Shown here: piece after piece, positions 1,816 to 63,486 of the stretch | Numbering within the stretch: the first letter of the stretch is position 1 | How the letters are laid out: every line of letters begins with the position of its first letter | Source: Mobula hypostoma | Lineage: Eukaryota | Direction of reading: 5' to 3' | DNA length: 64,000 bases | NCBI RefSeq assembly: GCF_963921235.1 | Contig: NC_086108.1 | Span: forward strand, 59,584,001 to 59,648,000 | The notes under the pieces: generated by a model | What the model saw: only the letters and a program-made list of their open reading frames with translations | What the model was told of the DNA's origin: nothing | Database searches by the model: none | Program-made: the position numbers and the translations under genes

Positions 1816-2301
1816 ACACACAAAATGCTGGTGGAATACAGCAGGCCAGGCAGCATCTATAGGAAGAGGTACAGTCGATGTTTCAGGCTGAGACCCTTCA
1901 TCAGGACCAACTGAAAGAAGAGATAGTAAGAGATTTGAAAGTGGGAGGGGGAGGGGGAGATCGGAAATGACAGGAGAAGACAGGAGGGGGAGGGATGGAG
2001 CCGAGAGCTGGACAGTTGATTGGCAAAATGGATACCAGGCTGGAGGAGGGAGAGGATCATGGGACGGGAGGCTTAGGGAGAAAGAAAGGGGGAGGGGAGC
2101 ATTAGAGGAAGATACAGTGAGAGGGACAGAGGGAGAAAAGAGAGAGAGAAAGAAAGGGGAAAAAAAACCAAAAAATAATAAATAAATAAATAAATAAGGG
2201 ATGGGGTAGAAGGGGAGGAGGGGCATTAATGGAACTTAGAGAAGTCAATGTTCATGCCATCAGGTTGGAGGCTACCCAGACAGAATATAAGGTCTTGTTC
2301 C
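1816..2301 (-). mobile_element. 5'-truncated Penelope-like element (ORF end plus pseudo-LTR)
   Basis: LGSLQPDGMNIDFS C-terminus shared with the other PLE copies; TSD tccattag(c/t)atc at 1804-1815 and 2302-2313. Confidence 0.88.
1872..1909 (-). ncRNA. Minimal hammerhead ribozyme motif (AUC cleavage triplet)
   Basis: Reverse complement reads GGUC-CUGAUGA-AGG-gucucag-CCU-GAAA-CAUC-GACUG. Confidence 0.65.
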
Positions 2302-2447
2302 TCCATTAGTATCTCCATGATTAGTTGTCCATTTGAATTCGATCTTGTAATTACATCCTCCAAGAAACAGAGCCTATTTCTGCATTGATGCAATGGATGT
2401 CGGTGGAACAACCTTCTGTGGATTGAAAATGGACACCAGTAGTTGAT

Positions 2448-3387
2448 CCCACCACGAAGCACATCTTCGCCCCCCCTGCTTTCTGCTTTCCGCAGGGATC
2501 GCTCCCTACGCGACTCCCTTGTCCATTCGTCCCCCCCATCCCTTCCCACCGATCTCCCTCCTGGCACTTACCCTTGTAAGCAGAACAAATGCTACACATG
2601 CCCTTACACTTCCTCCCTTAACACCATTCAGGGCCCCAGACAGTCCTTCCAGGTGAGGCGACACTTCACCTGTGAGTCGGCTGGGGTGATATACTGCGTC
2701 CGGTGCTTCTGATGCGGCCTTCTATATATTGGCGAGACCCGACGCAGGCTGGAAGACCATTTCGCTGAACACATATGCTCTGTCTGCCAGAGAAAGCAAG
2801 ATCTCCCAGTGGCCACACGTTTGAATTCCACGTCCCATTCCCGTTCTGAGATGTCTATCCACGGCCTCCTCTACTGTAAAGATAAAGCTACACTCAGGTT
2901 GGAGGAACAACAGCTTATATTCCATCTGGGTAGCCTCCAACCTGATGGCATGAACATTAACTTCTCTAACTTCCGTTAATGCCCCACCTCCCCCTCGTAC
3001 CCCATCCATTATTTATTTATTTAATATATTTTTAAATATATTTTTTATTCCCCCCCCCTTTTTTTCCTCTCTCTCTTTTTTCTCTCTCTGTCCCTCTCAC
3101 TATAACTCCTTGCCTGCTCTCCACCCTCCAGGCTCCCCTCCCCCCTTCTCTTTCTCCCCAGGCTTCCCGTCCCATGATCCTCTCCCTTCTCCAGCTCTTA
3201 GATCCACCCCTCCCCTCCTGTCTTCTCCTATCATTTTGGATCTCCCCCTCCCCCTCCCAATTTCAAATCTCTTACTAACTCTTCTTTCAGTTAGTCCTGA
3301 TGAAGGGTCCCCGCCTGAAACGTCGACTGTACCTCTTCCTATAGATGCTGCCTGGCCTGCTGCATTCACCAGCAGTTTTTGTGTGTT
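2448..3387 (+). mobile_element. 5'-truncated Penelope-like element (Cys linker, GIY-YIG, pseudo-LTR)
   Basis: CKQNKCYTC..GVIYCVRC..YIGET; TSD accagtag(t/c)tgat at 2435-2447 and 3388-3400. Confidence 0.9.
3292..3329 (+). ncRNA. Minimal hammerhead ribozyme motif
   Basis: UAGUC-CUGAUGA-AGG-guccccg-CCU-GAAA-CGUC-GACUG; stem I UAGUC/GACUG, stem II AGG/CCU. Confidence 0.8.
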
Positions 3388-4939
3388 ACCAGTAGCTGAT
3401 GGTTAGTAATAAGGGTAAACTCTCTTCCATGCAAGTACTGGTTGAAACATTTTACAGGCCAAACCAGACTCAAGGCCTGTCTATCAATCTGTGCAGAATT
3501 TTTCTCTGCAGCAGTAAGGGAATATGATGCAAATTTCTATGGGACATTCACTTCCATCACTCATTACCTGTGACATGACTGCACCTATACCATAAGCCGA
3601 GGTGTCACAGGAAAGCTTCACTGGATGACATGGATCATAATTAGTGAGTACAGTGTCTGACATCACCATTCAGGGCACTCTGAAAGGGGAGGGTGAGCAG
3701 CCAGCTGTCATGGTGCATGTAGGTACTAACGATATAGGAAGAAAGTGGGATGAGTTCCTACAAGCTGAATTTACAGAGCTAGGAGATAAATTAAAGAGTA
3801 GGACCTCAAAGGTAATAATCTCATGATTATTACCGGTGCCACGTGCTAGCCAGAGTTGGAATAGCAGGATAGCTAGAATGAACATGTGGCTTGAGTGGTG
3901 ATGCAGGAGGGAGGGTTTCAGATTCTTGGGGCATTGGAACCACTTGAGGGGGAGGTGGGACCAGTACTGTCCAGACAGTCTACATTTGGGCAGGGCCGGG
4001 ATCAATATCCTATGGAGATTGTTTGCTAGGGCTGTTGGGGAGGCTTAAAACTAACATGGCAGGGGGATGGGAGCCAGTACAGAAAAGAAGAGGGAAGTGA
4101 TGCAGAGACCAAAGCTAGAGTTAGTGTAGAAAAAAGTAAGAGTAGAGTGCATAAAAGTAAAAAGCAAAAATCACATAGGTCACTAGATTCTAAAAGGATA
4201 ATGGGTATAAGGGCACTTTTTCTAAATGCCCATAGTATCAGAAACAAGATTAGTGAACTTGCGACACAGATCAGTACCAAGGCATATGATTTAGTGGCCA
4301 TTACAGAAACCTGGTTGCAAGGTGGAGATGACTGGGAATTGAATATCCAAGGCTATCAGGTAATACAGAAAGATAGGCAGGAAGGCAAAGGAGGTGGGAT
4401 GGCACTCTTAATTAAGGATGAGATAAGGGCGATTGTGAGAGATTATGGAGCAGAATGTTGAGCATCTGGGTAGAGATTAAGAATAGTAAAGGGGAAAAAA
4501 ATCACTGGTGGGAGTTGTCTATAGGCCACCTAATAAAAATATTGCAGTGGCAGAGGTGATGAACCAAGAAATAACTGAGGCTGTAAGAACGGAACGGCAG
4601 TTGTCATAGGGGATTTTAACTTCCAAATAGATTGGGTGAATCAGGTTGGTCAAGGAAGTCTTGAGGAGGACTTCATAGAATGTATCTGTGATAGCTTTCT
4701 TGAGCAGTATGCTAGTGAACCTACAAAGGAAAATGCTATCTTAGATCTAGTCCTGTGCAATGAGACAGGTAAGGACGATCTTGTAATCAGGAATCCTCTT
4801 GGAAAGAGTGATCATAGTATGATTGAATTTCACATACAGATGGAGGATGAAATAGTTAGATCTAAAACTAGTGTATTATGCTTGAACAAGAGAGACTACA
4901 ACAGGATGAGGGAGGAGTTGGCTAATGTTGATTGGGAGC

Positions 4940-5531
4940 TCTCTCTCTCTGGCTATCCATCCCATTGGATGATGATGGTTCCTTTCAGTCAGTTAGTGGG
5001 GTTTGATATGTGTGTCCTGGAGCAGCTGTACAGGCTGATCCTTGACAGACACTGCTTGCCACACACTTGGCAGGTGAGGCCTGGAGGGGCAGCAGGGCCA
5101 GAAGCTCTATTGTGGCGCTTCCTGTGCCTTTCCTCCCTTGCCTTGTTGAGCTTGTTCTCAGCAGTGTCCACGCCTTTTCTGATGGCGTCCCTCCACCGTG
5201 AGCGATCTTGAGCCAGATCCTCCCGTGTTGATGGGGCAACGTCAGTTTTCTTGAGGCTCCTGTGCAGAACATCCTTGGACCATAGTCGCTGGCCTCCTCA
5301 TTTTCGGGTACCACTGGACAGTTGGCCATACAAGATGTACTTGGGCAGTCTTCCGTCAGGCATTCTGACAACATGTCCTGCCCAGCGCAGCTGAGCTGAC
5401 ATCACCAAGGTTGAAACTGCTGGCGTTCCGGCTCGAGAGAGGACCTCGGTATTGGAGACCTTGTCTCGCCAGGTGATCTTCATCAGAGAACGCAGGTGAC
5501 GTTGCTGCAGTTGGTCAAGCTGGCGTACGTG
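4940..5531 (-). mobile_element. RTE/BovB-like LINE 3' fragment nested in CR1
   Basis: ITWRDKVSNTEVL..LRWAGHVVRMPDGRLPK..YGQL and C-terminal CQVCGKQC zinc finger; (AG)n tail at ~4938-4950. Confidence 0.85.
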
Positions 5532-5989: not shown

Positions 5990-7029
5990 CTACTACTACT
6001 ACGTCGATTCAGGCCTACAGGGCTGGCATCGGGTAGGATGACAGACGCTCCACTTCTCCCTCTCCCTCATCAGTGTGTTCAGTTCATCTACATTAGCTGT
6101 GCCGCTGTCTTCTAGGAGCGTGTTGACCATAGACTTGGGAGGGAGCCCAGGGTTCATCCTCCCATGCTTGGGCTCCCATATGATGACTAGGCTGGCAGGT
6201 AGCTCAGAGTGGTGTAGACAGTGCCCCGCTAGTTGCAGTCTTCTCACCTCGATTTTAGTGGTGAGCATCGGTAGGTCATTATAGAGCTCGACGTTCATCA
6301 CGTGCTGTTGCCAACTCACGTCAAGAGCCATCCGGAGCATTTGTGTATAGCAACTATCGAGAGACTTTCGCATAGTCTTGGTGAGTGTCCACGTCTCACA
6401 TCCGTACGTGAGAATAGACTCTATGACTGCTATGAAAATCCTCTTTTTAAGCCCCCAGTCAGGTTCGACGTCCAGATTTCCTTCATGTCATTCATAGCCC
6501 TCCACGCCAGCGCCTTCCATACCTTTATGTCCTTCTCTGAACTCATCATTCTTGACCCGAGGTACTTGTAGTCAAAGACTTTCTTGATGGTATCATTCTC
6601 TATGGTCTTGTGAGTACCTTTGTCGCAGTTAAATGCCATGTACTCTGTCTTTTTAGTGTTTAGGTGAAGTCCAACTTTATTGCATTCTATTTCCACTTTT
6701 AGTAGCTGCTGTGCTTCCTCCATCTGGTCAGAGAGCAGGACTATGTCATCTGCAAAATCAAGATCTGTGAGTGTAAATGGTCTGACCCGTTTGGTTCATC
6801 CTGATTTATGGTTAAACCAAGCTTGTCATGATCTTTGGTAGCTTGACGCAGAGTGTAATCAAGGACGATTATAAAAATGTAGGGTGCCAGAGTGTCTCCT
6901 TGCAACACACCAGCTAGGAGCTCAAACACTACTGTTTCTCCGTCTAGTGATACAACTTTTGCCTTGGTTTTGGTATAGCTGGACTCTATTGCTCTCAGTA
7001 AATGGTCTGGCACTCTGTAAGCTTTCCAC
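5990..7029 (-). mobile_element. RTE-clade LINE 3' fragment (second family) nested in CR1
   Basis: GVLQGDTLAPYIFIIVLDY, GLHLNTKKTEYM, YKYLGS, RRLQLAGHC; (TAG)n tail at ~5990-6002. Confidence 0.82.
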
Positions 7030-8254
7030 ATGGAGGACACATCTAATATGTCGAAGAATGATGTTATGGAACAAATGGGAGGTGAGGACCTCGATAAAAT
7101 CACTGTCAGTAAAGAGATAGTGAAGAGCAAATTAGAGGGCCTGTTGGTAGATAAGTCCCCTGGTCCTGATGGGATGCATCCCAGGGTGCTGAGGGAATTG
7201 GCGGAGGTTATAGTAGACGTGTTGGTTATCATTTATCAAAACTGTCTCGACTCTGGGCAGGTCCCTGCGGATTGGAAGTCAGCAAATGTCACGCCACTTT
7301 TTAAAAAAGGATGTAGGCAAAAGATGGGCAACTATAGGCCAATTAGCTTAACATCTGTAGTCAGGAAAATGCTTGAAGCTGTCATTAAGGGAGAAATAGC
7401 AAAACATTTAGAAAAGAGTGGTTCCATTAGACAGACGCAGCATGGATTCAGAAAGGGCAGGTCCTGGTTGACAAACTTACTGGACTTCTTTGAGGACATA
7501 ATGAGTGCAGTGGATAGAAGGGAACAGGTGGATAATGTATACTTGGATTTCCAGAAGGCGTTCGATAAGGTGCCACACAAGAGACTTATAAATAGGATAT
7601 GGATGCATAGAGTCGGAGTAAGTGTATTGGCATGGATAGTGGATCCATTAACCAATAGAAGGCAGACAGTTGGTATAAATAGGTGTTTCTCCGGTTGGCA
7701 GTCAGTGGTGAGTGGGGTGCTAGGCCTGCAGCTGTTTACCATTTACACTGATTTGGAAGAGGGGACTGAGTGTAGTGCATCAAAATTTGCTGATGACGCT
7801 AAATTGAGTGAAAAAGCAAATTATACGGAGGATGTGTAGAGTCTGCAGAGGGATATAGATAAGTTAAGTGAGTGGGCCAAGGTCTGGCAGATGGAATACA
7901 ATGTTGGTAAATGAGAGATCATCCACTTTGGAAGGAGTAATAGAAGAGCAGATGATTATTTAAATGGTGAAATATTGCAGCATGTTGTTGTGCAGAGGGA
8001 CTTAGGAGTGCTTGTGCACGAATCGCAAAAAGTTGGCTTGCAGGTGCAACAGGTTATTAAGAAGGCAAGTGGAATGTTGGCCTTCATTGCTAGAGGGATT
8101 GAATTCAAGAGCAGGGAGGTATGCCATTCACATACTTTTACATATAACCCATAATTCATTATGTAACCATCAAAGAATGCTAAATGAAACATTATATTTA
8201 CTGCATTACTCAAATATTACTGAAATATTAAATACACAATACTATACACTACTC

Positions 8255-15097: not shown

Positions 15098-15399
15098 TAT
15101 CATCTGTAAACTTGGCCACAAAGCCACCAATTTCATCATCCAAATCATTGACATATGATATGAAAAAAAGCTGTCCGAGTATCGATTCCTGTGGAACACC
15201 AGTAGATTCAGCAGCCAGTGGGTACTTTTGTGCAAACAGGTCAGAGCAGAAAGATGGGGTGGTATTGTTATTTGTGGAAGGTAACAGAGTGGTGCTGAGT
15301 CAGTTGATAGTGGAACATAGAACAGTACAGCACTGTGTAGATCCTGTGACCCACAATGTTGTTGCAATCTACAGTATATAAACCTACTCCATGATCAAT

Positions 15400-15580
15400 C
15401 TCAGCAGATCAGGCTGCATCTGTGGAGGGAAATGAGCAGTTGATGTTTCTGGCCGAGCCCCTTCATCAAGACACTGATGAAGGGTCTCAATAAAGTGTCT
15501 TGATGAAGGAACTTGATCCAAAAAATCAATGAATTATTTCCCTCTATAGATGCTTTCTGGCCTGCTGAGTTCCTCCAACA
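15400..15580. repeat. Degenerate inverted pair of PLE pseudo-LTR ends (hairpin) with eroded hammerhead cores
   Basis: 15400-15434 is approximately the reverse complement of 15535-15569; tgatgaagg cores on both strands. Confidence 0.65.
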
Positions 15581-17520: not shown

Positions 17521-20177
17521 CTCTGAGGCAAAGAGTCAATAAAGCAGAGACCAGACATTGTGTATCTGAGTTTCATGGTCGGTCAGGTGACTCAGCTCTT
17601 GGTGTGGAGGATGAAACAATGGTCATGTGAACTGAGTGTTAAAAATAATTTGTGTCTTTATCTACCCACCCACTGAGAGGTTCTTCGATATGCGGGTTCA
17701 GTACGTTGATGTTTTCCCTTACAAGGTCACCACTTCACCTTCCACTGTGACTTCTTATGCTGCCTCTTTTCCTAGACAGTAGGCCAAAAAAGCTGAAAAA
17801 TCTAGCGTGAAGACTCCTGTAGTTATTAAGTTCATCTGTATAAACTCAAAATTAAAGGGAGCAACTTTCTGGTGGCAAAACAGTATGGACACAGTGAACA
17901 CTACAATATTATGAGAATATTAAAACACACGTTTGAATAATTTACAGAAAACCAAATGGCTTTCCATTTGTATATCTACAAATATATTATTTTATTTGAA
18001 ACAACTCTCAAGTCACTTACACTGTCAAAGCTTTCTCATTAGGACAAATAACATAGATAAGTGTCCAGAGATAAATCACATTGGCGTGGTAGTGGCTGAC
18101 CTAACATTGTTCATCTATGAAGGATGTCCATTTCATGCAAACCATATGAATATTTATTGCGTTTATGGTTCAGGCGTTGATTCAGGCATCCAAGTGCCAG
18201 CAGTATCCCTTTAAATAGTAAGAGAAGAGGAAACAAGGAAGTGTTTCAGGAAATCCATTTCAAAATGATCATAACCTAGAGCTCGTTATGGTAAATTTTG
18301 TCACTTCGGGCTGAACAGAGTTTTGCATGACTAACAACAAATTATCAAAATCCGCTGACGAATGCAAATGTTCGAGGCAGACGTAAACCTGAATAATCGA
18401 TAGGTTGTTTTATTTCAAAGACAATGTATTTTTAATTTTTTTTTACCATCAGTCTGTGTGGTATATTTAAATAGTGGTATGCTGTATGGTGTATTTGATC
18501 AAATGGACATTGATGTGTACATGTGAATGGTCTGTGAAGAAACTCAAATAAACCACTCACAACTTCTCACGGAGTCCATATTTCCCACTTGGATGTACAC
18601 TGCATGTTACTGCACTGGGAACTTCTGAAGTACAGGCATTACAGTCCGGTCTGCTTACACATCATTAAGGTGAATAGGAAAAGAAGCTGTGACTCATAGA
18701 CAAATGTTGATTGATGGTTACTTAATGTTTTATAAATTTTATGGTAGGTGTTACAGAGAGAAAAATCAACCTACTTGATTGAAGCAGTTGATATAAATAC
18801 CATCCATGCTCTTCATTAAAGAGCTTTGCTTTGTTGTCTAGCTTCAAGATGTTCACTTCAGCAGGAACAAATCACATTTCATTTTCCATTTCTATCTCTA
18901 TTCTCCTACTGGACACCAAGCAACAGCAAAGCTGACGTGTGGTACAATCAACAGCTTTTTCATGGATGAGCACGTTTAATACCCTTTGTTCATCAGTGGC
19001 AATGCATTAAAGGGGCCATTGGAGATCTAGTTTTTTAAAAAAATTGTTTTGTGCATACTTAAGTTGGATTATTACTTATTTTATGTGCAACAGGCAGTTG
19101 TACTTGGTTATCTGCCAATAACAGGGAAGCTGCATAATTGATACAGGTTTTTTTATTAACACTGCCAAGTATATGAGCAATTTATATGTAACGACTTGCC
19201 ACATAAACTCAATTAAAAGAGGCAACAAAAAGAAAACAACTGCTGCTTATACTCATGTTGCCAGCTTAGTGAATGAATGAATTTGGCAGTACAAGGTTGA
19301 TCTTGCGGTTTGATTTGAGTGAGGATCGGCTTTTGAGTACCTCAGTAAGAAAATACAATCCTCATGGAACATGGGAACAGGAGCTGGCCAGGCAAACTAT
19401 TGGATCTGCTCCAACTTTCAGCTATGCCATGACTGATCTGAACCCAGCATTTTTTGAGCTACCAGGGACCAAGTCCTTTGAAAGCCATGCTTAAACACTC
19501 ATCACTTTCAATCATTAAAGCTCTCATATCGAAGTATCCACAGTCATTTGAACTGAAGTACTGAAATTCTACTACCCTAAATGGAAAAGCTGATTTCTTG
19601 TTTCCCCTTCTAACTAGCATTGCTCCAATCTTAAGACTGATGAATCCTGAAAACATGATTTACCTTTCTTAGAACTATGTTGACCAGGTTAACTATATTT
19701 AGCTTTCCTAAATGATCAGCTTGACTCTACCATCTTAAATGATCTGGACTGTACTTCTGTGCAGTAATGAGTAGTGAGGATCTGGCCTTCAAGATACCAA
19801 AATTGTCTGTATTTGGCAGTGTATGGGCAAAATTCCTTACCATTTGCCTATTATGACACGTGGATTTCAAAGTCAGCCAAAGTAAATTTATTCTCAAAGT
19901 ATGTATATGTCCCTATATATAACCTATGTCGCTATTCATTTTCTTGAAGGCATTTACAGGGAAATAAAGAAATGCAATAGAATTTGTGAAAAACTACACA
20001 CAAGTAAAGACAGACAAACGCATGTGTAAGGAATTGTACCTCTGCTCCTGCCCCACAAGATAAACTAGTTGCTTGAATGGAAACAACAGGAATTCTGCAG
20101 ATGCTGGAAATTCAAGCAACATACATCAAAGTTGCTGGTGAACGCAGCAGGCCAAGCAGCATCTATAGGAAGAGGCG

Positions 20178-20215
20178 CAGTCGACGTTTCAGGCCGAGAC
20201 CCTTCGTCAGGACTA
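20178..20215 (-). ncRNA. Minimal hammerhead ribozyme motif (intact core)
   Basis: Reverse complement UAGUC-CUGACGA-AGG-gucucgg-CCU-GAAA-CGUC-GACUG. Confidence 0.82.
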
Positions 20216-21614
20216 ACTGAAGGAAGAGTGAGTAAGGGATTTGAAAGCCGGAGGGGGAGGGGGAGATGCAAAATGATAGGAGAAGACAGGAGGGGGAGGG
20301 ATAGAGCCGAGAGCTGGACAGGTGATAGGCAAAAGGGGATACGAGAGGATCATGGGACAGGAGGTCCGGGAAGAAAGACGGGGGGGGGGGTGACCCAGAG
20401 GATGGGCAAGAGGTATATTCAGAGGGACAGAGGGAGAAAAAGGAGAGTGAGAGAAAGAATGTGTGCATAAAAATGAGTAACAGCTGGGGTACGAGGGGGA
20501 GGTGGGGCCTAGCGGAAGTTAGAGAAGTCAATGTTCATGCCATCAGTTGGAGGCTACCCAGACGGAATATAAGGTGTTGTTCCTCCAACCTGAGTGTGGC
20601 TTCATCTTTACAGTAGAGGAGGCCGTGGATAGACATGTCAGAATGGGAATGGGATGTGGAATTAAAATGTGTGGCCACTGGGAGATCCTGCTTTCTCTGG
20701 CGGACAGAGCGTAGATGTTCAGCAAAGCGGTCTCCCAGTCTGCGTCGGGTCTCACCAATATATAAAAGGCCACATCGGGAGCACCGGACGCAGTATATCA
20801 CCCCAGTCGACTCACAGGTGAAGTGATGCCTCACCTGGAAGGACTGTTTGGGGCCCTGAATGGTGGTAAGGGAGGAAGTGTAAGGGCATGTGTAGCACTT
20901 GTTCCGCTTACACGGATAAGTGCCAGGAGGGAGATCAGTGGGGAGGGATGGGGGGGACGAATGGACAAGGGAGTTGTGTAGGGAGCGATCCCTGCGGAAT
21001 GCAGAGAGAGGGGGGGAGGGAAAGATGTGCTTAGTGGTGGGATCCTGTTGGAGGTGGCGGAAGTTACGGAGAATAATATGTTGGACCCGGAGGCTGGTGG
21101 GGTGGTAGGTAGGTAAGGACCAGGGGAACCCTATTCCTAGTGAGGTGGTGGGAGGATGGAGTGAGAGCAGATGTACGTGAAATGGAGGAGATGCGTTTAA
21201 GAGCAGAGTTGATAGTGGAGGAAGGGAAGCCCCTTTCTTTAAAAAATGAAGACATCTCCCTCGTCCTAGAATGAAAAGCCTCATCCTGAGAGCAGATGCG
21301 GCGGAGACGGAGGAATTGCGAGAAGGGGATGGCGTTTTTGCAAGAGACAGGGTGAGAAGAGGAATAGTCCAGATAGCTGTGAGAGTCAGTAGGCTTATAG
21401 TAGACATCAGTGGATAAGCTGTCTCCAGAGACAGAGACAGAAAGATCTAGAAAGGGGAGGGAGGTGTCGGAAATGGACCAGGTAAACTTGAGGGCAGGGT
21501 GAAAGTTGGAGGCAAAGTTAATAAAGTCAACGAGTTCTGCATGCGTGCAGGAAGCAGCGCCAATGCAGTCGTCGATATAGTGAAGGAAAAGTGGGGGACA
21601 GATACCAGAATAGG

Positions 21615-22635
21615 CGTTGACTTTATTAACTTTGCCTCCAACTTTCACCCTGCCCTCAAGTTTACCTGGTCCATTTCCGACACCTCCCTCCCCTTTCTAG
21701 ATCTTTCTGTCTCTGTCTCTGGAGACAGCTTATCCACTGATGTCTACTATAAGCCTACTGACTCTCACAGCTATCTGGACTATTCCTCTTCTCACCCTGT
21801 CTCTTGCAAAAACGCCATCCCCTTCTCGCAATTCCTCCGTCTCCGCCGCATCTGCTCTCAGGATGAGGCTTTTCATTCTAGGACGAGGGAGATGTCTTCA
21901 TTTTTTAAAGAAAGGGGCTTCCCTTCCTCCACTATCAACTCTGCTCTTAAATGCATCTCCTCCATTTCACGTACATCTGCTCTCACTCCATCCTCCCACC
22001 ACCCCACTAGGAATAGGGTTCCCCTGGTCCTCACCTACCACCCCACCAGCCTCCGGGTCCAACATATTATTCTCCGTAACTTCCGCCACCTCCAACGGGA
22101 TCCCACCACTAAGCACATCTTTCCCTCCCCCCCTCTCTCTGCATTCCGCAGGGATCGCTCCCTACACAACTCCCTTGTCCATTCGTCCCCCCCATCCCTC
22201 CCCACTGATCTCCCTCCTGGCACTTATCTGTGTAAGCGGAACAAGTGCTACACATGCCCTTACACTTCCTCCCTCACCACCATTCAGGGCCCCAAACAGT
22301 CCTTCCAGGTGAGGCATCACTTCACCTGTGAGTCGACTGGGGTGATATACTGCGTCCGGTGCTCCCGATGTGGCCTTTTATATATTGGTGAGACCCGACG
22401 CAGACTGGGAGACCGCTTTGCTGAACATCTACGCTCTGTCCGCCAGAGAAAGCAGGATCTCCCAGTGGCCACACACTTTAATTCCACATCCCATTCCCAT
22501 TCTGACATGTCTATCCACGGCCTCCTCTACTGTAAAGATGAAGCCACACTCAGGTTGGAGGAACAACACCTTATATTCCGTCTGGGTAGCCTCCAACCTG
22601 ATGGCATGAACATTGACTTCTCTAACTTCCGCTAA
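21615..22635 (+). pseudogene. Uninterrupted C-terminal part of PLE polyprotein (RT end/thumb, Cys linker, GIY-YIG endonuclease), 5'-truncated
   Basis: LPFLDL, VYYKPTDSHSYLDYSSSHP, CKRNKCYTC, GVIYCVRCSRCGLLYIGETRRRLGDRFAEH; the Cys-rich linker is typical of Neptune-group PLEs. Confidence 0.88.
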
Positions 22636-22933
22636 GGCCCCACCTCCCCCTCGTACCCCATCTGTTACTCATTTTTATGCACACATTCTTTCTCTCACTC
22701 TCCTTTTTCTCCCTCTGTCCCTCTGAATATACCTCTTGCCCATCCTCTGGGTCACCCCGCCCCCCCCTTGTCTTTCTTCCCGGACCTCCTGTCCCATGAT
22801 CCTCTCGTATCCCCTTTTGCCTATCACCTGTCCAGCTCTCGGCTCTATCCCTCCCCCTCCTGTCTTCTCCTATCATTTTGCATCTCCCCCTCCCCCTCCA
22901 GCTTTCAAATCCCTTACTCACTCTTCCTTCAGT

Positions 22934-22971
22934 TAGTCCTGACGAAGGGTCTCGGCCTGAAACGTCGACTG
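22934..22971 (+). ncRNA. Minimal hammerhead ribozyme motif (intact core)
   Basis: tagtc ctgacga agg gtctcgg cct gaaa cgtc gactg. Confidence 0.82.
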
Positions 22972-23891
22972 CGCCTCTTCCTATAGATGCTGCTTGGCCT
23001 GCTGCGTTCACCAGCAACTTTGATGTATGTTGCTTGCTTGAATGGATCCTATTGAACTCCTTTCATGTTTTAAACAGTTTGATCAAGTTGGTCCTCTGTC
23101 TGATATAGTGACGAGAATCCAAGCCAACTTTCTTTCAATCTGGTTAACATGATTGAATAATTAAAATAATATGTATTTCTTGTACTTCACCTCCCAATTC
23201 CAAAAATATATCATAGCTGCTGCACCAAGATCTCAGTCTGACCTAAACTTGTTTACTAAGTGAGAAATACATTTTGGCAACACAATGTCACAGAAACGAT
23301 TCTTTCCATTGGCAACATGAAAGAATTTTCATTCTGAACTTGCATAAAAAGGGATCATATATACATTACATTACTCGGGGAAGAGTCATTTATTTCTTGA
23401 AACAATGCTCACAGCGGTCGGATCTATACAGCATGTTAAAGCAGCAATTGCATTATTTTTTAATGAGAGGTATGTCTTCTGGGGCACATTTGAATGGGAG
23501 CGAGAAGCTTCTAATGTATTCTACTGAGCAATTCAAATGAAGGTAGCACCTTTCAGTTTGATATCAGCTAATTTGAAGCTCCAGATGACAAGAGATATTG
23601 GGGCTCTGAAGAAGGAAAAGGAGGCATATGTCAGGTATACACAGCTAGGTCAAGTGAATTCCTTGAGGATTATGCAGGATGTAATAGTACACCTAAGAGG
23701 GCAAATAGAAGGGCGAAAAGAGAGCATGAGATAGCCTTGGCAGATAAGATCAAGGCAAATCCAGAGACTATGCAAGTATATTGAGGGCAGAAAGGTAACT
23801 AGGGAGATGATAGGGCCCTTAAAGATAAGTGAGGTCATCAAGTGTGGATCCACAGGAGATGGAAGAGATCCTTAATAAATATTTCTTGAGT

Positions 23892-23964
23892 AACACACAC
23901 AAAATGCCGGATGAACTCAATAGGCCAGGGAGCATCTATGGAAAGGAATGAAGAGTCGACGTTT
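23892..23964 (-). mobile_element. ~70 bp PLE pseudo-LTR stub starting at the hammerhead (G)AAACGUC
   Basis: aacacacacaaaatgc..gtcgacgttt matches the PLE terminus; aatattt occurs on both sides. Confidence 0.6.
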
Positions 23965-24410
23965 GAATATTTTGCCTCTCTATTTACCAAGGAGAAAGAC
24001 ATGGATGCTAGGTGACTGAAGGAATTTAATAATGTTGTCCTGAAGGGAGTCCATATTACAGAAAAGGAAGTGATTAATGTCTTAAAGTATACTGCATATA
24101 GATAAATACCTGAGATCTGATCAAGTGTATTGTAGGACTTTGTGAAGAGCTGAGAACAATTATGGGTCCTATGCTGGAGGTATTTGTTTTATTAATAGTT
24201 GTGGGTGAGTCACTGGAAGACTGGAGGACGATTAATGTTGTGTCTTCATTTAAGAAAGGCTTCAAGGAAATTCCCGGGAACTATGAACCAATGAACCTAA
24301 CATCAGTGGTGGGTAAGTTATTGGAGGGAATTCTGAGTGACAGGATCTACAAGCAAGGGCTGATTAGCAATTGTCAACACTGTCTTTGGCATGGAAAATC
24401 CTGTCTCACC

Positions 24411-25440: not shown

Positions 25441-25460
25441 ATTAGGGATAGTCAGCATTG

Positions 25461-35620: not shown

Positions 35621-35812
35621 CCTAGTTGCCCCATCATGACTACAGAAACAAGTTCAGTTGATTGGCATAAAAATAGAAAATTCCAGGAATACTTGATGGG
35701 TCAGGCAGCCTCTGTGGAAAGAGAGAAACAAAACTAACATTTCAGGTCAATAAACACACATAAAAGTTGCTGGTGAACGCAACAGGCCAGGCAGTATCTC
35801 TAGGAAGAGGTA

Positions 35813-35850
35813 CAGTCATAGTTTCGGGCCAAGACCCTTCGTCAGGACTA
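35813..35850 (-). ncRNA. Hammerhead motif with mutated cleavage region
   Basis: Reverse complement UAGUC-CUGACGA-AGGGUCUUGGCCC-GAAA-CUAU-GACUG. Confidence 0.45.
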
Positions 35851-37515
35851 ACTGAAAGAAGAGTGAGTAAGAGATTTGAAAGTGGGAGGGGGAGGGGGAG
35901 ATCCAAAATGATAGGAGAAGACAGAAGGGGGAGGGATGGAGCCAAGAGCTGGGCAGGTGATTGGCAAAAGGGATATGAGAGGATCATGGGACAGGAGGCC
36001 TAGGGAGAAAGAAAAGGGGAAGGGGGGGAAAAGACAGGATGGGCAAGGGGTATAGCGAGGGGGACAGAGGGAGAAAAAGGAGAGAGAGAAAAATAATGTG
36101 TGTATATAAATAAATAACGGATGGGTACGAGGGGAAGGTGGGCCAATAGCGAAAGTTTGAGAAGTCAATGTTCATGCCATCAGGTTGGAGGCTACCCAGA
36201 TGGAATATAAGGTGTTGTTCCTCCAACCTGAGTGTGGCTTCATCTTTACGGTAGAGGAGGCTGTGGATAGAAATGTCAGAATGGGAATGGGACGTGGAAT
36301 TAAAATACGTGGCCACTGGGAGATCCTGCTTACTCTGGCGGACAGAGCGTAGGTGTTCAGTGAAACAATCTTCCAGTCTGCGTCGGGTCTCACCAATATA
36401 TAGAAGGCCACATCATCTCCCAGTCTCCGCCACATCTGCTCTCAGGATGAGGCTTTTCATTCCAGGATGAAGGAGATGTCTTCCTTTTTTAAAGAAAGGG
36501 GCTTCCCTTCCTCCACCATCAACTTTGCTCTCAAACGCATCTCTCCCATTTCACGCACATCTACTCTCACTCCATCCTCCCGCCACCCTACTAGGAATAA
36601 GGTTCCCTTTGTCCTCACCTACCACCCCACCAGCCTCCGGGTCCAACATATAATTCTCCGTAACTTCCGCCATCTCCAACGGGATCCCACCACTAAGCAC
36701 ATCTTTCCCTCCTCCCTCTCCCTGCTTTCTGCTGGAATCGCTCCCTACGCAACTCACTTGTCCATTCGTATCCCCATCCCTCCCCACTGATCTCGCTCCT
36801 GGCACTTATCCTTGTAAGCGGAACAAGTGCTGCACATGCCCTTACAATTCCTCCCTCACCACCATTCAGGGCCCGAGACAGTCCTTCCAGGTGATGCAAC
36901 ACTTTACCTGTGAGTCGGCTGGGGTGATATACTGCGTCCGGTGCTCCCGATGAAGCCTTCTATTATATTGGCGAGCCCCAACGCAGACTGGGAGATCATT
37001 TTGCTGAACACCTATGCTCTGTTCGCCAGAGAAAGCAGGATCTTCCAGTGGCCACAGATTTTAATTCCACGTCCTATTCCCATTCTGATATGTCTATCCA
37101 CGGCCTCCTCTACTGTAAAGATGAAGCCACACTCAGGTTGGAGGAACAACACCTTATATTCCGTCTGGGTAGCCTCCAACCTGATGGCATGAACATTGAC
37201 TTCTCTAACTTCCGCTAAGGCCCCACCTCCCCCTCGTACCCCATCCATTATTTATTTATATACACACATTCTTTTTCTCTCTTTCCTTTTTATCCCTCTG
37301 TCCCTCTCACTATACCCCTTGCCCATCTTCTGGGTTTCCCCCCCTCTCCCTTTTCTTTCTCCCTGGGCCTCCTGTCCCATGATCCTCTCATATCCCTTTT
37401 GCCAATCACCTATCCAGCTCTTGGCTCCATCCCTCCCCCTCCTGTCTTCTCCTATCATTTCAGATCTCCCCCTCCCCCTCCCACTTTCAAATCTCTTACT
37501 AGCTCTTCTTTCAGT

Positions 37516-37553
37516 TAGTCCTGACGAAGGGTCTCGGTCTGAAACGTTGACTG
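37516..37553 (+). ncRNA. Minimal hammerhead ribozyme motif (GUU triplet)
   Basis: tagtc ctgacga agg gtctcgg tct gaaa cgtt gactg. Confidence 0.65.
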
Positions 37554-37749
37554 TACCTCTTTCTAGAGATGCTGCCTGGCCTGCTGCGTTCACCAGCAAC
37601 TTTTATGGGTGTTGCTTGAAATTCCAGCATCTGCAGATTTCTTCGTGTTTGCATTTTTAATTTCAGGTCAATAACTCATGATCACAGCAAAAGTTTAGTA
37701 AGGGCCAAAACTGATCTCTTGAAGATCAACAAAGTCATCAACTCGTGTT

Positions 37750-40495: not shown

Positions 40496-41152
40496 AACAA
40501 CAGGAATTCTGCAGATACTGGAAATTCAAGCAACACACATCAAAGTTGCTGGTGAACGCAGCAGGCCAGGCAGCATCTCTAGGAAGAGGTGCAGTCGACG
40601 TTTCAGGCCGAGACCCTTCGTCAGGACTAACTGAAGGAAGAGTGAGTAAGAGATTTGAAAGTGGGAGGGGGAGGGGGAGATCCAAAATGATAGGAGAAGA
40701 CAGGAGGGGGAGGGATGGAGCCAAGAGCTGGACAGGTGATTGGCAAAAGGGATACGAGAGGATCATGGGACAGGAGGTCCGGGAAGAAAGACAAGGAGGT
40801 GGGGGGGGGGGAACCCAGAGGATGGGCAAGGGGTAAATTCAGAAGGACAGAGGGAGAAAAAGGAGAGTGAGAGAAAGAATGTGTGTATAAAAATAAGTAA
40901 CAGTGGGGTACGAGGGGGAGGTGGGGCATTAGCGGAAGATAGAGAAGTCGATGTTCATGCCATCAGGTTGGAGGCTACCCAGACGGAATATAAGGTGTTG
41001 TTCCTCCAACCTGAGTGTGGCTTCATCTTTACGGTAGAGGAGGCTGTGGATAGAAATGTCAGAATGGGAATGGGACGTGGAATTAAAATACGTGGCCACT
41101 GGGAGATCCTGCTTTCTCTGGCGGACAGAACGTAGGCATTCAGCAAAGCAGG
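40496..41152 (-). mobile_element. 5'-truncated Penelope-like element with 3' tail
   Basis: DLPVATYFNS..LGSLQPDGMNIDFS; perfect TSD tcaccttctgtca at 40483-40495 and 41153-41165. Confidence 0.92.
40592..40629 (-). ncRNA. Minimal hammerhead ribozyme motif (intact core)
   Basis: Reverse complement identical to 22934-22971. Confidence 0.82.
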
Positions 41153-41167
41153 TCACCTTCTGTCACC

Positions 41168-43552: not shown

Positions 43553-43565
43553 TGGATTCCAGTTA

Positions 43566-49838: not shown

Positions 49839-50144
49839 TTTGACTTCATATCAAATTTAAATTTGATCATTTTCAGAGGGGCATGTTGAAAAAATACCCA
49901 CAAACACTGATGAAAGTTTGTGTGTCTATAGCATGTTTATTTATTACAGAGAGCGTATGTGCTCTGTTTGCATCCAATCCCCATGTTCTACATTTGTCCC
50001 TGCACATGAAGTGGATCTGATATGTTTCTTTCCTCCTCTTTCTCTGCAAGCATGCTAGAAGGCCAGCATGGCAAGAAAGCTGTACAACTTGAAGGTAAAT
50101 CTTTGTTTTCCTCCAAAATCATTGTCAGATATTATTATTTTGTT

Positions 50145-50283
50145 AAGCAACACACATCAAAGTTGCTGGTGAACGCAGCAGGCCAGGCAGCATCTCTAGG
50201 AAGAGGTACAGCCGACGTTTCAGGCCGAGACCCTTCGTCAGGACACAGCATTTCCAGCATCTGCAGAATTCTTGTTGTTTGCG
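50145..50283. mobile_element. 139 bp PLE-derived mini-insertion containing a hammerhead (minus strand) joined to the 3' tail (plus strand)
   Basis: Perfect TSD ttattattttgtt at 50132-50144 and 50284-50296. Confidence 0.9.
50209..50244 (-). ncRNA. Minimal hammerhead ribozyme motif, short stem I
   Basis: Reverse complement GUC-CUGACGA-AGG-gucucgg-CCU-GAAA-CGUC-GGCUG. Confidence 0.65.
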
Positions 50284-51269: not shown

Positions 51270-51850
51270 CCAGTCAACACGCCAGAAAAAGTGAGATCTC
51301 CCAGTGGTCACCCGTTTTAATTCCACTTCCCATTCCCATTCTGTTATGTCTGTCCATGGCCTCCTCCATTGTCATGATGAGGCCAGGCTTAGATTGGAGG
51401 AACCACACCTTATATTCTGCTTGGGTAGCCTCCAACCTGATGACATGAACATTGATTTCTCAAACTTCCAGTAATGCCCCCACCCCACTTCCTTCCTATG
51501 CCCTTTTTCCCTCTCTCATCTGATCTCCTTACCTGCCTATCGCCTCCCTCTTGTGCTCCTCCCCCTTTTCTTTCTTCCAAGGCCTTCTATCTCTTTTACC
51601 AATTTACTTCCAGCTCTTTACTTCATTCCTCCCCCTCCTGATTTCGCCTATTACCTTGTGCTTCTCTCTCCCCTCCCCCCACCTTTTAAGTCTACTCCTC
51701 AGCTTTTTTTCTCCAGTCCTGCCAAAGGGTTTCAGCCCGAAACGTCGACTGTGCTTTTTCCCATTGACGCTGCCAGGCCTGCTGAGTTCCTCCAGCATTT
51801 TGAGTGTGTTGCTCGGATTTCCAGCATCTGCAGATTTTCTCTTGTTTGCG
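51270..51850 (+). mobile_element. Older PLE subfamily 3' fragment with variant hammerhead core CTGCCAA (51715-51751)
   Basis: ttgggtagcctccaacctgatgacatgaacattgat ORF end; pseudo-LTR and tail ending cttgtttgcg. Confidence 0.82.
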
Positions 51851-53540: not shown

Positions 53541-53599
53541 TTCAAAGGTTGAAGTGAATTGACTTTATTACCTACATCCTTCATATACATGAGTGATCA

Positions 53600-56500
53600 T
53601 AAACAGTGCGATCGCGGGACAGTCGCAGCAGGAGGAGGAGCGAGGGGCTTGGGAGAGCGCTGACTGTTGGGAAGCAGCTGAGGAGCTGAGGTGAGTGTAC
53701 TTTAAAAGGAGCATGGAGGGCAACTGAAGGGTTAAACAGAGTGTTGATTAGTTGACTAGAGGGAGTGAGTACTTGAGATAATTGGCAGGGACAAATAAAA
53801 GGAGGGATAACTGAAGAAGCACTGCCAATGTGTGAGTAGCTCAGGGTAGGCTTTGAGGCTTTGAGGTTTTGAGGTTTTGAGGTTTTGAGGTTTTGAGGCT
53901 TTGAGGCTTTGAGGCTTTGAGGCTTTGAGGCTTTGAGGCTTTGGCTAGCAGAGGCTGAGGACAAGTCTGCTCCCAGTGAGGTAAGGCTGGGTAAGTTCCT
54001 TTAATTAATTTAATTAACTTGGGAGTAAGTAATGGAGGCAGCAGTTAGGCCAGTTGAGTGCTCCATATACAGTATGTGGGAAGTCAGGGACAGCACAATT
54101 GTCTCTGATGACTACACCTGTAAAAGAATCATCCAGCTGCAGCTCCTGAGAAATTGAGTTAGGGAACTGGAGCTGGAGCTGGATGAACTTTGGATCATTC
54201 GGGAGGCAGAGGCAGAAATAAACAGGAGTTACAGGGAGATGGTCACCCCTAAGAGTGAGGAGACAGGTAGCTGGGTGACTGTCTGGAGAGGGAAGGGCAG
54301 AGCACCCCTGTGGCTGTTCCCATCAACAATAAGTATACTGTTCTGGATACTGTTGGTGGGGCTGACCTACTCGGGACAAGTTGTAGTGGTTGTGTCTCTG
54401 GCACCAAGACTGGACCCTCAGCTCAGAAAGGAAGGAGGGAAAAGAGGAGAGCAGTAGTGATAGGGGATTTGATAGTTAGGGGGACAGATAAGAGGTTCTG
54501 TGGAGAGATCGATGGTCTGTTGCCTCCCTGGTGCCAGGGTCCACGATATCTCAGATCAAGTTCTCGGTATTCTCAGGAGGGAGGGTGAGTAGCCAGATGT
54601 CATGGTCCATGTAGGGACCAATGACGTGGATAGGAAGGAGGAGGAGGTCCTGCAAAGAGAGTTTAGGGAGTTAGGTGCAAAGTTGAAGGACAGTACCTCC
54701 AAGGTTGAAATCTCAGGATTGCTACCCATTCCACATGCTGGTGAGGTTAGAAATAGGAAGATAATGCAGCTAAATACATAGCTAAGGAGATGGTGCAGGA
54801 GGGAATGCTTCATGTTTCTAGACAATTGGGCTTTGTTCCAGGGGAGGTGGGATCTGTTCCGACAGGATGGGTTGCACCTGAACTGAAGGAGAACTAACAT
54901 CCTTGTGGGTAGATTTGCTAGTGCTGCTCTGAGGGGTTTAAACTAGATTTGCAGGGGGAGGGGAAGCAGAGTGTTAGAGCAGATAATGAGGTGGGAAGGA
55001 TAAAGGTCATGTGAGAACTGCATGTATAGACAGAAATCAAAGGTTTGTCCATGATAGAAATGTTCTCAGGTGCATCTATTTCAATGCAAGGAGTATTGTA
55101 GGTAAGGCAGATGAGTTTAGGGCGTGGATTGGCATGTGGGATTACGACATTATTGCTGTTAGTGAGACTTGGTTGTAGGAGGGGCAGGACTGGCAGCTTA
55201 ATGTTCCAGGTTTCTGTTCTTTCAGACGTGATAGAGGGGGAGGAGTGGCATTACTAGTCAGGGAGAATATCACAGCTGTGTGTAGACAGGACAGCCCAGA
55301 GAGCTTATCTACAGAGGCTATATGGGTGGAGCTGGGGAACAGGAAAGGTGTGACCACACCAATGGGGTTGTATTATAGACTGCCCAATAGTCAGAGAGAA
55401 TTGGAGGAGCAAATCTGTAGAGAGATAGCAGACCAATGTAAGAAACAGAAAGTTGTAATAGGGGATTTTAACTTTCCACATATTGACTGGGACTCCCACA
55501 CTGTAAAAGGGCTAGATGGCTTGGAGTTTGTCAAATGTGTTCAGGAAAGTTTTCTAAATCAATATACAGAGATGAGAGAAGGTGCACTATTTGATCTCCT
55601 ATTAAGGAACCAGACAGGTCAGGTGACAGAAGTATGTGTCGGCGAACATTTTGGGTCCAGTGACCATAATGTCATTAGTTTCAAGTTAATTATGGATAAG
55701 GATAGGTCTGGCCCTCAAGTTGAGGTTCTAAATTGGAGAAGGGCCAATTTTGTAGAAATGCGAAAGGATCTAGGAAGAGTGGATTAGGATAAGTTATCTT
55801 CTGGCAAGGATGTGTTCAGTAAGTGGAAGGCCTTCAAAGGCGAAATTTTGAGAGTGCAGAGTTTGCATGTTCTTGCCAGGATTAAAGGCAAAGTTAACAG
55901 GCATAGGGAACCTTGGTTTTCAAGGGATATTTCTGATCTGGTTAAGAAAAAGAGAGAGGTGTATAGCAGGTATAGGCAACAAGAAACAAATGAGGTACTT
56001 GAAGAGAATAGAAAATGTAAGAAAATACTAAAGAAGGAAATCAGGAAGGCAAAAGAAGACATGAGGTTGTTTGGCAGATAATGTGAAGGTAAACCCAAAG
56101 GGTTTCTACAAGTATATTAAGAGTGAAAGGATAGTAAGGGACAAATTTGGTCCGCTAGAAGATCACAGTGGTTGTCTATGTGTGGAGCCTCACGAGATTG
56201 TGGAGATCTTAAACAGTTTTTTTTTGCATCAATATTTACTCTGGAAACTGGCATAGTGTATATGGAAGGAAGGGAAACAAGCAGTAGTGTCATGGAACAT
56301 ATAGAGATTAAAGAGGAGGAGGTGCTTGCTGCCTTACAGAGAATAAAGGTAGATAAATCCCCCAGGCCTGACAAGATATTTTCTCAGACTTTTACAGAGA
56401 CTGGTATAGAAATTGCAGTGGCCCTGGCAGAAATATTTAAAAATTCCTTAGCCACGGGTGTGGTGCCAGAGGATTGGAGGGTAGCTCATGTTTTTCTGTT

Positions 56501-61683: not shown

Positions 61684-62087
61684 CTGGTAATGCCTCCTCA
61701 CCTCCTTCACCATTCCCTTCTCACCTTATCTCCTTGCCGGCCCATCACCTCCCACTGGTGCTCCTTCTCCTTTCTTCCGTGGCCTTCTGTCCTCTCCTAT
61801 TGGACTCCCCCTTGCCTAGTCCTCTATCTGTTTCACCAATCAACTTCCCAGCTCTTCACTTCATCCCTCCCTCTCCCTCCCTCTCCCAGTATCACCTATC
61901 ACCTTTTAATTCTCTCTCCTCTCCCCCACCTTTTAAATCAACTCCTCATCATTTTTTCTCCAGTCCTGCCAAAGGGTCTCGGTCTGAAAAGTTGACGGTA
62001 CTTTTTTCCATTGATCTGCTTGGCCTGCTGTCCCTCCACCATTTTGTGTGTGTTACTTGGAATTCTAGCATCTGCAGTTTTTTTCTT
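61684..62087 (+). mobile_element. Older-subfamily PLE pseudo-LTR inserted in Gypsy gag
   Basis: TSD gtttgctt(a/g)caaatt at 61669-61683 and 62088-62102; variant core ctgccaaaggg at ~61966. Confidence 0.82.
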
Positions 62088-62530
62088 GTTTGCTTGCAAA
62101 TTTAACTGCCTCAACCAAATCAATCGAAATGAGCATTGCTGATATTGTGAAATTAATGTAGGAACATTTAGAATTGAAATGATTGTTGACTGCAGAACAA
62201 GTTAGGTTTCATAAGTGGAATCAAAAGGAATGGGAGTCCATTTAAGTGTAAGTGGCTGAATTGAAGAAGTTGTATGAGCACTGTCAGTTCAAAGGTGGCC
62301 TTAATGATACACTGAGTGATCATCCAGTTTGTGGAATCTTACAAAAAGGCATTGAAAACTGGCTGCTCACTGAAGCACAGCTGAAACTTAAAAGAGCAGT
62401 TGAAATACATGTCTCAATGGAAACAGCAGTCAGAGAAGCTGTCAGGAATGAAAGTGAGTGTGAACAAAATTCTAAGCAGACAACTACCTGGGCGAACAAA
62501 TAGTGTTAGCATTGTGGCACGGACTCCTAT

Positions 62531-63130
62531 ACTTTACTTTATTGTCACCAAACAATTGATACTTGGGCATACAATCATCACAGCGATATTTGATTCTGCG
62601 CTTTGCGTTCCCTGGAGTACAAATCAATAGTAAATATTAAAAATTTAAATTATAAATCATCATTAGAAAATAGAAAAGGGAAAGTAAGGTAGTGCAAAAA
62701 AGCAGGTCCGGATATTTGGAGGATACGGCCAGATCCGGGTCAGGATCCATTCAGCAGTCTAATCACAGTTGGAAAGAAGCTGTTCCCAAATCTGGCCATA
62801 TGAGTCTTCAAGCGCCTGAGCCCTCTCCCGAAGGGAAGAGGGATGAAAAGTGTGTTGGCTGGGTGGGTCGTGTCCTTGATTATCCTGGCAGCATTGCTCC
62901 AACAGCGTGCGGTGTAAAGTGAGTCCAAGGACGGAAGATTGGTTTGTGAGTTGTGCTGGGCTGTATTCACGGTCTTCTGCAGCTTCTTCTGGTCTTGGAC
63001 AGGACAAATTCCATACCAGGTTGTGGGGCACCCTAGAAGAATGTTTTCTACGGTGCATCTATAAAAATTAGTAAGGGTTTTAGGGGACAGGCCAAATTTC
63101 TTTAGCTTTCTCAGGAAGTAAAGGCGCTGG
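62531..63130 (-). mobile_element. Rex1/Babar-like 3' end inserted in Gypsy gag
   Basis: QRLYFLRKLKKFGL..RFGNSFFPTVIRLLNGS; aataaagtaaagta tail. Confidence 0.87.
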
Positions 63131-63381
63131 ACCAGACCAATACAGGTTTCGTGGTGAAACTTGCAGAAAATGCAACAAAGTAGGACACATACAAAAAGCA
63201 TGTCAGGCAGACAAAAGTAAATGTACTGCACCTGGAAGAAAAAAAGCTAAAAAGTCAAGTTGCAGTTTCAAAAAGAGCACTAATCTGCATGCTATTGATG
63301 AAAGATCAAATAATGATGACATATAGACAGGACTGGGTAGCCTTGAGATTTATAATATGAAAAGTAACAATAGATAAGCAA

Positions 63382-63486
63382 CATACATCAAAGTTGCTGG
63401 TGAACGCAGCAGGCCAAGCAGCATCTATAGGAAGAGGTGCAGTCGACGTTTCAGGCCGAGACCCTTCGTCAGGACTAACTGAAGGA
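63382..63486 (-). mobile_element. ~105 bp PLE mini-insertion comprising the hammerhead and pseudo-LTR terminus
   Basis: Direct repeat agataagcaa at 63372-63381 and 63487-63496. Confidence 0.88.
63440..63477 (-). ncRNA. Minimal hammerhead ribozyme motif (intact core)
   Basis: Reverse complement identical to 22934-22971. Confidence 0.82.

Follow-up and report, generated by a model that had tools for sequence, protein, structure and literature searches.

In this study we analysed a 64,000-nucleotide stretch of the Mobula hypostoma genome (positions 59,584,001 to 59,648,000 of contig NC_086108.1, assembly GCF_963921235.1), called the window below, which contains eleven copies of a hammerhead ribozyme motif. 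We consider it highly probable that these are minimal type I hammerheads of a Penelope-like element (PLE) of the Neptune/Nematis type, that the ribozyme is selected in tandem master elements, and that the copies in the window are passengers whose cleavage of host read-through transcripts is negligible.

All 11 positions proposed by an earlier reading made from the letters alone (the sequence-only reading) carry a hammerhead motif, five on the plus strand (starts 3292, 22934, 37516, 51714 and 61961) and six on the minus strand (starts 1872, 20178, 35813, 40592, 50209 and 63440), and only one start had to be moved, from 51715 to 51714; the earlier reading gave no strands, which matter here. This occurrence is far above chance. 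The pattern CTGANGA-N6-24-GAAACGTC is found 6 times in the window, compared with a mean of 0.02 and a maximum of 1 in 100 shuffles, and a descriptor requiring both stems finds 7 copies, while each of 20 shuffles gives 0. A covariance model, of whose training sequences 2 were among the 11 window motifs, ranks the same 11 motifs at the top (E 1e-11 to 1.5e-4), with the next match at 0.22. Recognition by a model or descriptor, which the sequence-only reading proposed as a check, is obtained with these purpose-built tools and not with the Rfam hammerhead models, which give no match in the window up to E 10, and the motif lies outside any Rfam family threshold. Exact DNA patterns of the motif have no matches in metagenome, viral or prokaryote contigs. 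The earlier count of about ten is right for the listed positions and overlooked three or four decayed copies, at ~15437-15476 (minus), 15497-15575 (plus) and 23889-23966 (minus, 3' part only), with a weak additional copy at 39372-39434 (plus; covariance model E 0.06).

The copies were scored nucleotide by nucleotide, with positions numbered in the conventional hammerhead scheme, and the earlier grading into intact, near-intact and altered motifs stands. The full set of 11 core nucleotides (core boxes CUGANGA, GAAA and UH) is kept in 8 of 11 copies and the stem III palindrome ACGU also in 8 of 11; stem I has 5/5 pairs in nine copies and stem II 4/4 pairs in all 11, with G-U counted as a pair. 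Core, C17, palindrome and both stems are kept together in five copies, which lie at 3292..3329 (plus), 20178..20215 (minus), 22934..22971 (plus), 40592..40629 (minus) and 63440..63477 (minus). The predicted cut falls after 22966 in the copy at 22934, exactly where it had been placed before, and between 20183 and 20182 in the copy at 20178. The core is also intact at 1872..1909 (minus), where the palindrome is broken (ACAU), at 37516..37553 (plus), which has U17 and a weak, wobble-rich stem II, and at 50209..50244 (minus), where stem I is truncated and mutated and forms 3/5 pairs. The copy at 35813..35850 (minus) is damaged (U16.1>A, palindrome lost) and has G10.1-C11.1. The last two, at 51714..51751 (plus; stems intact, G10.1-C11.1) and 61961..61998 (plus; decayed, palindrome lost), belong to a second subfamily, and the core changes A6>C and G8>A are present in both. 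The first of these may be fixed in this subfamily, and G8>A sits in a possible CpG and could reflect decay after insertion.

These features agree with the metazoan minimal hammerheads of PLEs, including the fish elements Xena, Poseidon and Neptune, described by Cervera and de la Pena (2014; PMC4209133). Both groups are type I with a stem I of 4-5 bp, have one additional base separating position 9 from 10.1, and carry the palindrome at 15.2-16.2; in both, most motifs are dispersed single copies from truncated PLEs, with some close opposite-strand pairs. Unlike those motifs, which usually have G10.1-C11.1, the young family in the window has G10.1-U11.1. We found no mention of cartilaginous fishes in that paper, though they may be present in its supplementary alignments, and a literature search on Penelope hammerhead ribozymes in shark returned no relevant report.

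Judged by its sequence, the carrier is an endonuclease-bearing PLE. The 3' third of its open reading frame (ORF), at 21616..22635 on the plus strand with the stop codon at 22633-22635, encodes a reverse transcriptase (RT) thumb, a CX4CxxC linker and a GIY-YIG endonuclease with CCHH residues, which a Pfam search places at the C-terminus, and a YIDD motif is present near 21570 on the opposite, minus-strand arm of the same insertion (insertion B, below). The ORF is followed by a 3' non-coding region, or pseudo-long terminal repeat (pseudo-LTR), at 22636..23033 (plus), in which the ribozyme begins 304 nt past the stop codon. A homolog search restricted to proteins of 595-2000 residues found 180 longer proteins; most of the 120 listed have RT domains, the full-length ones carry RVT_1, and 109 of the 120 have a CX2-5CxxC linker. 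Since this linker is described as diagnostic for the Neptune and Nematis clades (PMC8557442), we assign the window element to the Neptune/Nematis type. C211, C214, C238, C249, H271 and H287 are invariant in an alignment of 20 sequences, and among the homologs listed a Chiloscyllium protein has the highest identity, 67% across 56% of the query. Viral contigs contain no relatives of the PLE protein, and the N-termini of homologs do not match the pseudo-LTR, hence there is no sign of an ORF start inside the ribozyme. The earlier claim of minimal type I hammerheads in a PLE pseudo-LTR is therefore borne out by the domains of the ORF, by its homologs and by the motif in relatives.

The repeat is very abundant. 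In sequencing run X1, which may come from the same source as the window, 169,919 genomic contigs match one 600-base stretch of it, and the runs of four organisms contain at least 64% of its words. This PLE repeat makes up roughly 8.5 kb, or 13%, of the window, with rough bounds.

In order to compare the motif among distant elements, we used 88 loci encoding related proteins, with 31-51% protein identity to the window element, which come from metagenomes and genome bins and are probably animal DNA. A covariance model trained on 8 motifs (4 of the 29 matching loci supplied training motifs) finds, in 29 of the 56 eligible loci, a sense-strand motif within 250 nt past the ORF, and no antisense motif; the strict descriptor, with a different eligibility rule, finds it in just 5 of 46. 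Across the 40 distinct motifs of these relatives, the catalytic positions are almost constant (G5 in 40, G8 in 39, G12 in 36, A15.1 in 40 and U16.1 in 40), and stem I varies freely. The stem cells of these motifs are paired in 83%, compared with 62% after shuffling (0 of 500 shuffles as high), and two-sided stem changes number 84 against 27.5 in shuffles, in an alignment that was fitted to the structure, so that the counts lean towards the model, and among sequences that are related. The description of stem III as the palindrome ACGU also holds, with C15.2 in 36 and G16.2 in 37 of the 40 motifs in addition to the 8 of 11 window copies. From the sense-only placement after the ORF in distant relatives and the covarying stems, we judge that the motif is under selection in active elements.

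Some observations on these loci stand apart from this comparison. Prokaryote genome bins (L081-L088; Poribacteria, Endozoicomonas and Turicibacter among them) contain PLE relatives, most of them with hammerheads, and these are probably host animal DNA. In loci L051 (1806-1847) and L073 (1365-1408), a hammerhead whose stem III is a palindrome of four bases is found about 3.2 kb upstream of where the ORF ends, the place at which full-length relatives would be expected to have their 5' pseudo-LTR, and a minus-strand motif lies upstream of the ORF end in seven loci. Two results again favour selection on the motif. The DNA flanking the window copies has no similarity to the relatives' loci (best E 0.28). 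Among genomic contigs, loose ends pile up at both borders of the motif (553 at 20178 and 614 at 20214); we read these piles as other subfamilies with the same ribozyme and different flanks, though that at 20214 could include 5' truncations.

The fold itself needs one correction. The sequence-only reading drew stem II as AGG/CCU, which is probably off by one. An unpaired A follows CUGANGA in 39 of 40 relatives' motifs and in 11 of 11 window copies, C11.1, which pairs with G10.1, is kept in 38 of the 40, and the register with a bulged A is predicted to be 1.4 kcal/mol more stable than the AGG/CCU register. Stem II is thus probably a bulged A followed by a GGGU/GCCY stem of four pairs and a four-base loop. 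The 10.1-11.1 pair is formed in all 11 window copies, as G-U in nine and G-C in two, and C11.1 makes up about 21% of contig depth in run X1. A plausible origin of U11.1 in the young family is CpG loss in a master copy.

In folding predictions, which use nearest-neighbour energies without tertiary contacts or Mg2+, the isolated 38-mer forms a rod in which G5-G8 pairs with CGUC (probability 0.99; -11.0 kcal/mol compared with -7.0 for the open hammerhead). A hammerhead-like dimer is predicted at -11.5 kcal/mol and the best dimer at -30.3, about 19 apart. With upstream sequence the probability of the rod is 0.001 and another hairpin occupies the core, so the predicted ground state would be inactive either in isolation or with upstream sequence. 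The rod depends on N7, as 9 of 10 motifs with C7 reach at least 0.88 and five motifs with A7 stay at or below 0.52. A general off-switch by the rod misfold, which we had considered, is weakened by this dependence and by the loss of the rod in the upstream context.

Several results weigh against our reading. The GIY-YIG domain scores 22.2 bits in Pfam, just below the cut-off of 22.6. Within the window, taking the majority sequence of the young family as reference, non-CpG mismatches are found at 1 of 80 core positions and 54 of 1,076 flanking positions, which is not significant (Fisher p 0.17). Of the 39 places listed in the read table, 1 falls inside the motif where 2.6 are expected (p 0.27). 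The conservation of the core relative to its flanks, expected before, is hence found across relatives and is not significant within the window or the read table. Moreover, the window contains neither a partial tandem (pseudo-LTR, ORF, pseudo-LTR) nor a full-length master, and therefore the form of the active element is inferred. The fit of the alignment to the structure, the simplified energy model and the disappearance of the rod with upstream sequence, all given above, belong on the same side.

A further question is whether the copies cleave host RNA. The sequence-only reading held that intact copies could cleave read-through transcripts mainly as dimers, and this part is not upheld. Paired copies lie on opposite strands and cannot fold as dimers in cis, and a transcript through such a pair would contain one ribozyme and its antisense, with a predicted duplex of -80 kcal/mol. 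On the same strand, intact copies are about 20 kb apart and the nearest copies of any quality 4.7 kb. Together with the predicted sequestration of the core, this makes cleavage of host read-through RNA doubtful. It is quite unlikely, in our view, that intact dispersed copies act as cis or trans dimers on host transcripts and affect host RNA; five copies are intact including the palindrome, partners in trans would be plentiful if so abundant a repeat were transcribed, and related motifs show weak cleavage in vitro as dimers, but no host gene was identified in the window, the Schistosoma monomer is described as inactive (PMC4209133), and the ribozyme of an anole PLE is reported to cleave only with its protein, with no RNA-seq reads ending at the cut (PMC11167929).

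The same anole data bear on a further possibility, that the fold is kept as a binding or folding element for the PLE protein and that catalysis is dispensable or being lost. Core mutants of the anole element still insert in vitro, apparently unaffected (PMC11167929), and A6C is reported to strongly reduce Mg2+-dependent cleavage in other hammerheads (PMC7151607), a change present with G8>A in both copies of the second subfamily. In addition, nine of the 11 window copies have G10.1-U11.1 in place of G-C, and a core variant U4>C (CCGANGA) occurs in 9 of the 40 distinct relatives' motifs (L023, L081, L082, L083, L084, L085, L014, L066, L017, L015). Nevertheless, it is the catalytic nucleotides that are kept across distant relatives while the stems vary, G8>A may be decay at a CpG as noted above, and the anole ribozyme does cleave with its protein, where a C3G/G8C double change rescues cleavage (PMC11167929). 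On balance we regard a purely structural role as unlikely, and prefer a ribozyme that is selected in active master elements.

The insertions themselves are more informative about how the copies arose. None of the copies in the window is full-length, and five insertions (A, B, C, E and G) are head-to-head pairs. Insertion B (20081..23033) is a young pair with a tailed minus arm (20081-21614) and an untailed plus arm (21615-23033), which are 98.6% identical over 1.4 kb and are enclosed by a 12-bp target-site duplication (TSD; 20069-20080 / 23034-23045). In insertion C (35754..37659), the minus arm has the short end and the plus arm is tailed, with a 15-bp TSD (35739-35753 / 37660-37674). Insertion E (50145..50283) is only 139 bp long; its minus arm (50145-50244) runs from the short 3' end to the 5' arm of the ribozyme, its plus arm (~50250-50283) is tail only, and the TSD is 13 bp (50132-50144 / 50284-50296). 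Insertion A (1808..3390) is an old pair of 5'-truncated arms, both at the short 3' site, which have 10 derived sites in common that are absent from five other arms compared, and insertion G (15398..15575) is a very old short pair with decayed hammerheads at ~15437-15476 (minus) and ~15497 (plus). The two arms of a pair match each other best, or have derived sites in common, in A, B and C, and therefore each of these pairs came from one event.

The remaining copies are single. Insertion D (40496..41152, minus) is 5'-truncated and tailed, with a 13-bp TSD (40483-40495 / 41153-41165), and insertion F (63376..63489, minus) is a young copy of ~110 bp with the short 3' end and a 10-bp TSD (63372-63381 / 63487-63496) that overlaps both element ends. 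Copies H (51280..51850, plus; ~25% diverged from the young family) and I (61831..62095, plus) belong to the second subfamily and are tailed, and an old 3' fragment at 23889..23966 (minus) contains the 3' half of the hammerhead only. Exact TSDs are thus found at B, C, D, E and F, and among random pairs a match of at least 10 was reached in 16 of 1,985; a TSD search at A, G, H and I found none, and at copy J just a 7-nt match. Inverted 5'-truncated copies, a tail of 30-40 bp at one end and short TSDs are a published pattern of Neptune/Nematis PLEs (Craig et al. 2021, PMC8557442; Arkhipova et al. 2013, PMC3846280), which, as here, have a C-terminal GIY-YIG domain with CCHH residues and a CX2-5CxxC linker; these elements also have partial tandems, unlike the window.

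Retrozymes were weighed against this background, that is, non-autonomous tandem hammerhead repeats which make circular RNA and of which the motifs could be units. The non-LTR retrozymes of Li, Clavereau and Pollet (2026; preprint 10.64898/2026.07.22.740005) are of type I, derive from PLE pseudo-LTRs, include dispersed monomers and occur in one cartilaginous fish, all of which resembles the present case, and a few contigs (three of X1 and one of X9) contain short head-to-tail motif repeats of ~35-37 nt with a joint from 20214 to 20180. But retrozymes are tandem and non-coding, whereas no tandem unit is present in the window (same-strand motifs are at least 4.7 kb apart), every long copy continues into ORF sequence of the PLE, and the short ones show the ends of a PLE together with TSDs. 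With no two consecutive tandem hammerhead units in the window, retrozyme identity is excluded for the window copies, and as an explanation of the motifs we hold it to be extremely unlikely.

The 3' ends of the PLE copies are confined to two places. All 13 readable ends, a count which excludes both decayed arms of insertion G, lie at two fixed sites, six at the tail site and seven at the short site about 33 nt earlier, which are ~103 and ~69 nt beyond the predicted cut, respectively. The optional tail of ~32 nt between them (20081..20112, minus) was delimited by arm comparison and by a pile of loose contig ends at 20081, and contig depth roughly halves across it. No arm among the window copies ends or starts at the cut site; the closest start is 6 nt upstream (copy J). 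As the ends sit at fixed sites past the ribozyme and never at the cut, uncut RNA was the template, and the arrangement of the copies shows that the ribozyme rides within the copied 3' region and defines no element end.

A similar arrangement is described for Poseidon PAc of Anolis carolinensis (Frangieh et al. 2024, PMC11167929), the anole element mentioned above. It also has a pseudo-LTR hammerhead, two downstream start sites of reverse transcription which bound a tail, and an uncut RNA template, and both DNA strands are nicked and extended, which we count as a further likeness. PAc belongs to a different clade, as the window element has linker cysteines; its start sites lie in an AC-rich stem-loop, whereas the two ends in the window are G/U-rich on the sense strand; and its ORF starts inside the ribozyme, while the window copies have no 5' end.

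These data can be combined in one scheme. Active tandem masters elsewhere in the genome would keep the ribozyme under selection, where, by analogy with related elements, it most likely trims the multimeric element transcript slowly, in dimeric form by way of the ACGU palindrome and aided by the element's protein. As the ends show, reverse transcription begins on uncut RNA at either of the two fixed sites downstream of the ribozyme, and any copy longer than ~100-135 nt thus includes a ribozyme. The copies are 5'-truncated, often joined head-to-head, and then decay. For those in the window, which have no nearby same-strand partner and are predicted to misfold, negligible cleavage of host RNA would be the consequence.

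How the head-to-head copies form is a separate point. Possibly, though we rate the chance at somewhat below even, both strands of a staggered nick prime on the uncut RNA, one at the tail site and the other ~33 nt upstream, with a ribozyme whose core, paired with itself, keeps it inactive until the protein remodels it. If true, twin priming at two fixed sites would explain the head-to-head arms, the tail on one arm and the TSD together. Insertion E looks like the footprint of twin priming on one RNA molecule, because its two arms, in opposite orientation within a 13-bp TSD, come from neighbouring parts of the element without overlap (tail positions 1-31 and 34-133); adjacent inverted pieces are the twin-priming pattern described for L1 (PMC9148063). 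All three pairs with a TSD (B, C and E) consist of a tailed and an untailed arm. The arms of B and C overlap, and under twin priming they would require either a second RNA or a second unit of a tandem transcript, and the old insertion A, with two untailed arms, does not fit priming at two sites. One clean case and two compatible ones make this a lead only. PLE twin priming at two fixed sites was not found stated in any paper in our literature search, which left most subscription journals outside, and a term search of the PAc paper gave no mention of "twin priming" or inverted genomic copies. Instead of priming from both nicks, the accounts in PMC8557442 and PMC3846280 attribute the tail to endonuclease resolution and trace the inverted repeats to self-priming on an antisense template, the latter proposed for inverted copies in PMC3846280.

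Two target sites resemble the element. The site of insertion F (63372-63381) has 6 nt in common with the short 3' end, and that of insertion B (20069-20080) agrees over 11 nt with the sequence of the element around its short end, which suggests microhomology-assisted priming at some sites. In a few genomic contigs, tail ends are joined to the opposite strand near the ORF end (20081 to 20564/20573), possibly by insertion of the element into its own copies.

The association of PLEs with hammerheads is already published and the window adds one more host lineage, so the ribozyme result itself matters little, and the side result on insertion structure is more useful. As the family is partly young, with arms 0.7% apart, and very abundant, the genome would yield thousands of insertions with TSDs, which bear on the origin of head-to-head PLE copies and tails, and on whether cleavage ever sets element ends.

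Other repeats are also present in the window. Fragments of a Tc1/mariner-type transposase (DDE_3, HTH_Tnp_Tc3_2) lie at 27113-28074 (plus), and LINE fragments with RVT_1 or endonuclease domains at 33865-35394, 7021-7839 and 55179-55787 (all plus), with many more in the ORF list. An integrase core fragment at 1092-1547 (minus; rve, E 2.7e-5, under the cut-off) probably comes from an LTR retrotransposon. An open frame at 1-450 (plus), without a match in the Pfam scan, has a cysteine/histidine knuckle which we take to resemble the C-terminus of an L1-type ORF2. At 26506-26555 (plus), U6 snRNA is matched weakly over its 5' half (E 4.7, under the threshold), which is probably chance or an old fragment. 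Finally, a tandem array at 53832-53967 consists of an 8-bp unit in ~12 overlapping copies in register.

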